Part shown: piece after piece, positions 32,801 to 35,800 of the stretch
Numbering within the stretch: position 1 is the first letter of the stretch
Layout: every line of letters begins with the position of its first letter
Source: Elsinoe ampelina
Taxonomy: Eukaryota
NCBI GenBank assembly: GCA_010093995.1
Contig: ML992504.1
Coordinates: 372,001 to 436,000 of the forward strand
Direction: 5' to 3'
DNA: 64,000 bases
The notes under the pieces: model-generated
Told to the model about the DNA's origin: nothing
What the model saw: the letters and a program-made list of their open reading frames with translations, nothing else
Database searches by the model: none
Program-made: the position numbers and the translations under genes

Positions 32801-35800
32801 CGAGTGCAACGTCATGATCGAGACACAGATGTCCAAGGTGTATGAGAAGATTGATCTTACACTTCTCAATCGACTATTACGTCTGATCATGGACCACAAC
32901 TTGGCAGACTACATCACTTCGAAGAACAACGTGCAGCTCAGCTACAAGGATATGAACCACGTCAACAGCTATGGTATGGTTCGTGGTCTCCAGTTCTCGG
33001 CTTTCGTCTTCCAGTACTACGGTCTGGTACTCGACCTTCTATTGCTCGGTCTTCAGCGAGCTAGTGACATTGCTGGCCCACCAAACAGCCCGAACGACTT
33101 CTTACAGTTCAAGGATCGCGCCACCGAGACTCGCCACCCCATCCGTCTCTACACCCGATACATTGATCGTATCTGGGTCTTCTTCAGGTTCACTGCTGAC
33201 GAGTCCCGCGATCTGATCCAGCGTTTCTTGACTGAGCAGCCGGACCCGAACTTCGAGAATGTCATCGGCTACAAGAGCAAAAAGTGCTGGCCTCGAGATT
33301 CTCGAATGCGGCTTATGCGACACGATGTCAACCTGGGACGAGCAGTCTTCTGGGATCTTAAAAACCGTCTGCCTAGGTCCGTTACTACCATCGAATGGGA
33401 CGACACATTCGCCAGCGTCTACAGCCGCGACAACCCCAACCTCTTGTTCTCGATGTGCGGTTTTGAGGTACGAATTTTGCCCAAGATTCGCAATCAGAAC
33501 GATGAGTTCCCTACCAAAGACAGTGTCTGGTCACTCGTCGACAATGCTACGAAAGAGAGGACTGCTCATGCTTTCCTGCAGGTCACCGAAGAAGACATCG
33601 CCAAATTCAACAACCGCATTCGCCAGATTTTGATGTCATCCGGTAGTACAACATTCACGAAGATTGCCAACAAGTGGAACACCACCCTCATCGCCCTCTT
33701 CACCTACTACCGAGAAGCTGCCGTCAGTACCGTCTCGCTGCTCGATACGATCGTCAAGTGCGAAACCAAGATCCAAACTCGTGTCAAAATCGGTCTAAGT
33801 AAGTTTCCATTGCCCCTAGCCTCTTTAAATGCCTACTAACCCTCAAAAATATTCGAAAATGCCCAGTAGATTCCCACCCGCCGTCTTCTACACGCCGAAA
33901 GAATTGGGTGGTTTGGGTATGATTTCTGGTAGTCACATCCTGATACCTACCAGCGACAAGCGGTGGTCGAAACAGACCGATACAGGCGTCACGCACTACA
34001 GAGCCGGCATGTCTCATGATGAGGAGACCCTCATTCCCAATATCTTCCGATATATCATCCCGTGGGAGGCCGAGTTCATCGACTCCCAACGTGTCTGGAC
34101 CGAATACTCCCAGAAGCGCCTGGAGGCGACTCAGCAGAATCGACGACTAACTCTGGAAGATCTAGAAGACAGCTGGGACCGTGGCCTACCACGAATCAAC
34201 ACGCTTTTCCAGAAAGATCGCTCGACTCTCAGCTTCGACAAGGGTTTCCGCACCCGGACGGAGTTCAAGCTGTACCAGCTTATGAAGAGCAATCCCTTCT
34301 GGTGGACTAGTCAGAGGCACGACGGCAAGCTTTGGAACCTCAACGCCTACCGTACCGACGTTATCCAAGCGCTGGGAGGTGTCGAGACTATCCTCGAGCA
34401 CACCCTCTTCAAGGCAACAGCTTTCGGCTCTTGGGAAGGGCTTTTCTGGTAGGACCTCCGTGAATGACTACCAGAACTTGACGCTAATACATCCCCAGGG
34501 AGAAGGCAAGCGGGTTTGAGGAAAGCATGAAGTTCAAGAAATTGACAAATGCTCAACGGTCCGGTCTGAACCAGATCCCCAACAGACGTTTCACCTTGTG
34601 GTGGTAAGTATTTCCTACCAGCATGTTACCTCCCTATCACATCCCACCTCGCTCCACAGTTAGCCACTCCTACCAGTCCTAGCACTATCCTACCAGACAC
34701 CATGAGCCCCATGACAGAGTGTTTCCCGCCCGTGTCAAGGCTCCTACCAGAATACCACAGAAACTACCAGATTACTCGAAACCTGTGCAGGATCGAGCCC
34801 TGGCCGATGCCACGACTCCTACCACATTGCCACAAATACTACTAGACCATTGATAAACTGACATTTCTTTCAGGTCTCCTACCATCAATCGAGCAAATGT
34901 TTACGTCGGTTTCCAGGTCCAGCTTGACCTTACTGGCATTTTCTTGCACGGCAAGATCCCCACTCTCAAAATCTCACTCATCCAGATCTTTCGTGCTCAT
35001 TTGTGGCAAAAGATTCACGAGAGCGTCGTCATGGACTTATGCCAGGTCTTCGACCAGGAGCTCGAAGCGCTCGGCATCGAGACTGTCCAGAAGGAGACGA
35101 TCCATCCGAGAAAGAGTTACAAGATGAATTCGTCTTGCGCGGACATCCTGCTCTTCGCCAGCCACAAATGGGCAGTCACCACTCCAAGTCTGCTGAACGA
35201 TACCAAGGACAACATGGGTCAGACGACTACAAACAAGTTCTGGATCGACGTCCAGCTCCGCTATGGCGACTACGATTCCCACGACATTGAAAGATATGTC
35301 CGCGCGAAGTATCTCGACTACACTTCGGACAGCATGTCCATCTACCCCTCCGCGACAGGTCTCATGATCGGTATTGATCTCGCCTACAACCTCTACTCGG
35401 CATACGGACAGTACTTCCCAGGTCTCAAGCAGCTTGTACAACAGGCTATGGCGAAGATCATGAAGGCAAACCCGGCTCTATACGTACTTCGTGAGCGCAT
35501 CCGCAAGGGTCTACAGCTGTACGCATCTGAGAGTAACCAAGAGTTTTTGAATTCTCAGAACTATTCGGAGCTCTTCAGCAATCAGATCCAGCTGTTCATC
35601 GACGATACGAACGTTTACCGTGTCACGATTCATAAGACATTCGAAGGCAATCTCACCACCAAGCCCATCAACGGTGCTATCTTCATCTTCAACCCTAGGA
35701 CTGGACAGCTCTTCCTCAAAATCATTCACACAAGTGTCTGGGCCGGTCAGAAGCGTCTCGGCCAGCTTGCCAAGTGGAAGACAGCCGAAGAAGTCGCCGC

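Follow-up and report, generated by a model that had tools for sequence, protein, structure and literature searches.

Evidence That a Major-Type Intron in PRP8 of Elsinoe ampelina Is Spliced at an AAU 3′ End

INTRODUCTION

How can an essential gene be expressed when its first intron offers the spliceosome no usable AG? The question is raised by PRP8 in the window, by which we mean the whole stretch of 64,000 nucleotides of Elsinoe ampelina DNA that was analyzed. A preliminary description of this locus, made from the letters alone, took PRP8 intron 1 to run from GT to AT, held that productive mRNA needs this non-canonical end while the canonical choices yield decay substrates, and proposed that the arrangement could act as a feedback sensor of splicing fidelity. 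We find that the AT end is joined in spliced contigs from two studies, and that PRP8 intron 1 is probably a genuine major-type (U2) intron, constitutively spliced, with a 3′ end of AAU in place of YAG.

Introns of the GT-AT class are already on record and are rare, and PRP8 intron 1 adds another case. A U2-type GT-AT intron occurs in DGCR2 of human and mouse, and the same source, in the part cited here, lists several U12-type cases as well (PMC1557818). A manually corrected annotation of the fungus Ganoderma lingzhi contains 18 GT-AT introns among roughly 92,000, according to the counts in its report (PMC11590231). In yeast, the sections of Roy et al. (2023, PMC10711555) on which we draw describe spliceosomes lacking Prp18 that accept many non-AG sites; HAU trinucleotides are the commonest of the non-G 3′ sites, and CAU and UAU the most efficient. 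A pairing of U(-1) with G(+1) was proposed there for HAU sites, with C or A at -1 argued to clash, and a very short branch-to-3′ distance was described as making Prp18 dispensable (PMC10711555). A literature search of limited scope brought up no report of a PRP8 intron with an end other than AG.

RESULTS AND DISCUSSION

All of the PRP8 features described here lie on the plus strand. Exon 1 (29820..33798) opens with an ATG at 29820 and continues as an open frame for 1326 codons and the first base of an Asn codon; residues 1-1326 align with Prp8 of Sphaceloma murrayae and Elsinoe australis at a 96.5-96.6% match. The 52-nt intron 1 (33799..33850) begins with the major-spliceosome consensus GTAAGT (33799..33804) and contains the branch site TACTAAC (33834..33840), in which position 33839 is the presumed branch A on the basis of the consensus. 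Downstream of TACTAAC the letters read CCTCAAAAAT up to the boundary and ATTCGAAAATG beyond it (CCTCAAAAAT, then ATTCGAAAATGCCC), and the last bases of the intron, 33849-33850, are AT. The non-canonical 3′ splice site is therefore an AAT (33848..33850; AAU in the RNA), as seen both in the sequence and in the contig joints described below, and it belongs to the HAU class as delimited in the cited part of PMC10711555. There is no AG at all from the branch site to 33865. The first canonical acceptors past the intron (33864..33869) are a CAG ending at 33866 and a TAG ending at 33869, which lie 16 and 19 nt beyond the AAU site (27 and 30 nt beyond the branch A), and both are out of frame.

Exon 2 (33851..34448) opens AT TCG AAA ATG, completing Asn-Ser-Lys-Met. 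It is followed by intron 2 (34449..34498), of 50 nt, with GT..AG ends, a CTAAT branch site whose A lies 11 nt from the end, and a joint seen in runs X3, X4, and X5. Exon 3 (34499..34603) is defined by sequence, contigs, and the reconstructed coding sequence. Intron 3 (34604..34873) is longer, at 270 nt, again with GT..AG ends; its branch site is CTGAC, with the A 12 nt from the end, and its joint is seen in X3 and X4. Exon 4, taken up to the stop codon (34874..37274), follows from the reconstructed coding sequence. When the three introns (33799-33850, 34449-34498, and 34604-34873) are removed by script, the result is a coding sequence of 7083 nt, or 2360 codons, with no internal stop. The spliced product of 2360 amino acids is 97.3% identical to Prp8 of Elsinoe australis and 97.0% identical to that of Sphaceloma murrayae over the whole length, which places the fungus in the Elsinoaceae (Dothideomycetes) or close to them.

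Intron 3 also harbors a cluster of the 9-mer TCCTACCAG. Four exact copies and two with one mismatch fall within about 270 nt at 34613-34885, in the intron and the first bases of exon 4, and another exact copy lies on the minus strand at 34446-34454. The whole window holds 32 matches at no more than one mismatch, against 12.3 expected, and none of 100 shuffles reaches 32. The cluster could be what is left of an old repeat, or it could serve as a protein-binding site or as a decoy acceptor.

The consequences of each possible 3′ end of intron 1 for the reading frame were computed by script. Joining 33798 to 33851 restores a 14-residue conserved Prp8 stretch across the junction. Joining to 33867 or 33870, by contrast, shifts the frame, with stops following 18 and 17 codons on, and retention of the intron runs into a TAA stop at 33837-33839. 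On re-reading of the window, the coordinates and sequence statements given for intron 1 in the preliminary description proved correct in every instance, and the script reproduced its statements that the downstream AGs frameshift and that retention meets TAA. Its view that productive PRP8 mRNA uses a non-AG end holds as well, in that 33798^33851 gives the open frame of 2360 amino acids.

Evidence that the AT end is in fact joined comes from public sequencing runs. A search returned 20 runs with matching sequence, and four of these were compared with the window over 32600-35400. None of the runs is registered as RNA; for X3 (study P2), X4 (study P3), and X5 the kind is a guess ('RNA?' or '?'), and it is their spliced contigs that were used. 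The contig from X3, with 7995 nt at a depth of 167, spans 32600-33798 of exon 1 and then joins 33798^33851, where it 'skips 52, GT..AT, both = 0'. The X4 contig is shorter and shallower (1402 nt, depth 4.5) and makes the same joint with the same entry, 'skips 52, GT..AT, both = 0'. The value 'both = 0' means that zero letters can be moved across the 33798^33851 joint, so its placement is unambiguous. Both contigs also skip introns 2 and 3, with their GT..AG ends confirmed; since the two canonical introns are missing as well, the contigs derive from spliced RNA. The joint is present in two of the three runs other than the possible source of the assembly, and the third, X5, has no cover there. 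Over its exonic cover, X3 shows 0 differences from the window.

No contig using either AG or retaining intron 1 was found in any of the compared runs, with the provisos that contigs drop rare forms and that X5 has no cover at the site. The AT terminus at 33849-33850 put forward from the sequence is thus borne out by spliced contigs from two studies, and the junction check suggested at that time, carried out here on contigs, returned 33798^33851 in X3 and X4 and neither AG joint in any contig. Contigs carry no isoform ratios, and we infer constitutive and efficient use of the AAU site from the single assembled form together with the essentiality of the gene.

The base at 33850 was checked on the DNA side, as had also been suggested, with run X1. 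The X1 contig, at a depth of 196.6, does not differ from the window in any letter of 32600-34334 and has T at 33850, and none of the three PRP8 intron joints is present in this run. X1 is possibly the very sample behind the window assembly, and it is the sole DNA check of the T; spliced contigs are silent on the base that their own strain carries at 33850. The X1 contigs break at 34305-34334, where one of them continues into adapter-like letters that are a library artefact and not genomic; they resemble what we take to be a loxP-type library adapter.

Two further features of the runs were seen. At 33362, the X4 and X5 contigs have G in place of A, a change that is absent from X1 and X3; therefore, at least two strains are represented in the public data. 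In addition, X3 yields a short contig at 34620-34761, inside intron 3, at a depth of 7.8 as compared with 167 for the spliced contig, and hence some of the X3 material is PRP8 RNA that is not, or not fully, spliced, or else contaminating DNA.

With the junction in hand, we consider the type of intron. The donor GTAAGT conforms to GURAGU, the branch site TACTAAC conforms to UACUAAC and to a CURAY near the 3′ end, and the contigs from X3 and X4 show exact removal of the intron with exon ligation. All of these are properties of major-type introns. The one departure is the terminal AG, in place of which both the window and the DNA contig have AT. The spacing of the signals is ordinary for this gene: from the presumed branch A to the end of the intron there are 11 nt in intron 1, 11 nt in intron 2, and 12 nt in intron 3. 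Across 23 ORF-joining candidate introns in the window, which come from a heuristic scan, are none of them RNA-verified, and include false ones, the median branch-to-end distance is 10 nt; the clean short candidates have 8-10 nt, and a few are longer. One of the false candidates sits at the PRP8 stop, and the scan is used for the trend in spacing alone. The AAU occupies the position at which this fungus usually has its 3′ splice site, and the CAG and TAG lie farther from the branch site, at 27 and 30 nt.

The AAT at 33848-33850 has the A/C/U-A-U form of the HAU class. The U-rich tract associated with that class is missing, the sequence upstream of AAT being CCCUCAAAAAU, CCCTCAAAAAT. RNA folding around intron 1 is not notable (z = 0.02), and on this value an RNA structure that conceals the downstream AGs, or otherwise explains the choice of site, was rejected.

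Three alternative accounts bear on these data. The first is that the intron is an ordinary GT..AG intron ending in AAG, the true base at 33850 being G and the T a base-call error or a mutation private to one culture. The spliced contigs would look the same with an AG, and the only DNA evidence for the T is that of X1, possibly the source of the assembly itself. However, the X1 contig was rebuilt from reads at a depth of 196.6 and equals the window at each base of 32600-34334, and the RNA-like X3 shows no mismatch to the window. Moreover, if the T is real in any living culture, PRP8 must be spliced at AAU there, because every alternative destroys the frame; a private mutation would still demand the unusual splicing event. 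We consider it improbable that the true base is G. The joint itself might instead arise from template switching by reverse transcriptase, from misassembly, or from a processed DNA copy, and non-canonical junctions in RNA-seq are frequently artefacts. Against this, the 33798^33851 joint has no shared letter at its ends, was found in two studies, restores an invariant 12-residue motif along with the 2360-residue frame, occurs in contigs that lack two canonical introns as well, and is absent as a joined form from the DNA run X1. An artefactual joint is scarcely credible on this evidence. Equally far-fetched is the notion of a minor-type (U12) intron, a class that tolerates GT-AT ends. The motifs of U12 introns are RTATCCTT at the donor and TCCTTAAC at the branch site, to which GTAAGT and TACTAAC bear no match (donor GTAAGTTT, branch CCTACTAAC). 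Introns of the U12 type with GT-AT ends are on record, and a short distance from the branch fixes where they end (PMC1557818, as far as cited here), with which the 11 nt of intron 1 would accord; yet a survey of more than 3000 eukaryotes, in the portion on which we draw, reports for Ascomycota a lack of convincing minor introns and at most a few minor snRNAs (PMC10639083).

We turned to relatives for the history of the intron. Of 361 Prp8 proteins fetched, 356 read straight through the 14-residue stretch at the intron 1 site, and three do not contain the region, one of these being our own exon 1 piece. The remaining cases are from Aureobasidium. The A. namibiae protein P0047 reads KIGLSNRFPP and lacks four invariant residues, and when a canonical GT at 33803 and the AG at 33866 are forced on the window by script, exactly KIGLSNRFPP is obtained. 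Among 2031 candidates scored, P0047 was the only one with this forced 'SN' junction free of gaps, and it is 1 of the 361 fetched proteins. The A. namibiae model, known from its protein alone, looks as if it had been forced around a non-AG intron at the same codon. The A. subglaciale protein P0156 reads through a 114-nt in-frame insert at the site and ends early, at 1594 amino acids. The insert opens with Ser-Lys, that is, AGY and then AAR as reconstructed from the protein, as would be given by an A followed by a GTAAG donor; its start therefore puts a phase-1 intron at exactly the position of intron 1. On these protein sequences, the intron position is apparently common to the window and part of Aureobasidium.

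A scan of metagenomes for related PRP8 loci was evaluated for the best 80 of 506, none of which exceeds 82% DNA identity, and 76 of these 80 have no intron at the site. The intronless loci include two A. pullulans-like ones, L001 and L002, with 99% protein identity to A. pullulans. The four others carry introns that are all AG-ended: L052 has a 56-nt intron (1066-1121) that lies one base upstream of the window's position and ends in CAG, L058 has one after NSK (about 1810-1876) that also ends in CAG, and L068 and L072 have one after RFPPA (about 1834-1890). In alignment, intron 1 of the window and the L052 intron share little beyond splice signals, and the alignment gives no support to sliding between the two, nor does it exclude it. 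Within about 35 nt of coding sequence, then, four different intron positions are seen in different Pezizomycotina, and this cluster could mark a short region prone to the gain or sliding of introns. The comparison of orthologs that had been proposed as a check did not yield a conserved non-AG end, given the 76 of 80 intronless loci, and the A. namibiae protein model KIGLSNRFPP is a hint only.

These comparisons weigh on the proposal that intron 1 is an autoregulatory sensor. In such a scheme, the weak AAU would compete with the out-of-frame CAG and TAG, and Prp8 or second-step fidelity would set the ratio of productive to decay-targeted mRNA and thereby tune PRP8 expression. With two canonical YAGs at 16 and 19 nt past the AAU, each of which frameshifts to an early stop, the geometry suits this scheme, as does the clamping of the docked 3′ splice site by Prp8, reported in the part of 10.1101/212811 drawn on here, and the A. 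namibiae model hints at an awkward site in a second lineage. On the other hand, no AG-using junction occurs in the contigs, which are presence-only evidence, and the gene models of the nearest named relatives retain the conserved residues. The conservation to be expected of autoregulation through unproductive splicing is missing too, since the intron is absent in 76 of the 80 related loci, the A. pullulans-like ones included. With the intron missing from those loci and 356 of 361 proteins reading through the site, any sensor would therefore be a lineage-specific oddity. The sensor is unlikely, and the idea is left unsupported by contigs that contain the productive joint alone and by the mostly intronless relatives. 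It is likewise doubtful, to a degree that leaves it little room, that the non-AG end itself has been selected. Under that proposal, some Dothideomycetes PRP8 genes would carry, at the same codon, an intron unreadable by a strictly AG-dependent spliceosome, so that the output of productive mRNA would be a readout of how permissive the second step is and would act back on the supply of Prp8, with the A. namibiae model as a second case, independent or inherited. A tolerated change at the last base of the intron is a simpler account than a feedback sensor, and a new regulatory mechanism is not revealed on present evidence.

Among known systems, the AAU site of PRP8 intron 1 resembles the HAU sites of S. 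cerevisiae, such as the CAU of NYV1 (Roy et al. 2023), which in the cited sections are U2-type, end in H-A-U a short way past the branch point with canonical YAGs farther downstream, and have the same proposed contact of U(-1) with the first G (PMC10711555). The yeast sites, however, are described there as minor alternatives that are unmasked mainly without Prp18 and are helped by U-rich tracts, whereas the AAU of PRP8 is the only productive site of an essential gene in a wild-type fungus and has no U tract. The animal DGCR2 intron shares a strong U2-type 5′ splice site and an AT terminus (Sheth et al. 2006, PMC1557818). As presented in that source, animal GT-AT introns differ in their polypyrimidine tracts, long branch-to-3′ distances, and human-mouse conservation, and they belong to another kingdom and gene. 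Ganoderma lingzhi provides the class in a fungus, at about 0.02% of introns, but this is a basidiomycete, and the portion of the report cited gives counts, with a gene-level or mechanistic description not seen in it (PMC11590231). The U12-type GT-AT introns agree with it in their terminal dinucleotides and in a 3′ end that is fixed by a short distance from the branch, but the motifs of PRP8 intron 1 are U2-type, and Ascomycota are without a minor spliceosome according to the cited part of PMC10639083.

The mechanism that we propose starts from what is observed, namely, the sequence, the exact junction, its consequences for the frame, and the branch-to-end spacing seen locally. Donor and branch site, both of them perfect (GUAAGU and UACUAAC), would drive the first step of catalysis. 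When the exons are ligated, the spliceosome may then pick the nucleotide at the distance customary in this fungus, 8-12 nt from the branch A, with the AGs presumably out of reach, as the nearest are 27 and 30 nt off and out of frame. At the chosen site, A(-2) should still be able to contact the branch adenosine, and U(-1) could pair in an alternative way with the first G of the intron, following the published model for yeast HAU sites. An AAU at a spacing of 11 nt appears to fit the picture of HAU sites and short distances drawn by Roy et al. Most likely, the AAU would have arisen when the final base of intron 1, itself lineage-specific, underwent a point change, and this change may have been tolerated because distance, and not AG alone, positions the 3′ end.

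CONCLUSIONS

These results have a practical consequence for annotation. Gene finders limited to GT/GC-AG introns must break this PRP8 or drop four invariant residues, and the second of these seems to have happened in one public model from a related fungus. Intron 1 could also serve as a substrate for asking how far the distance from the branch point and the G(+1):U(-1) contact make up for a missing AG. For the biology of this fungus, PRP8 intron 1 represents a natural case in which a wild-type spliceosome ligates at AAU and an essential gene has no other productive pathway, and, by coincidence or not, the product of this gene is the protein by which the 3′ splice site is held.
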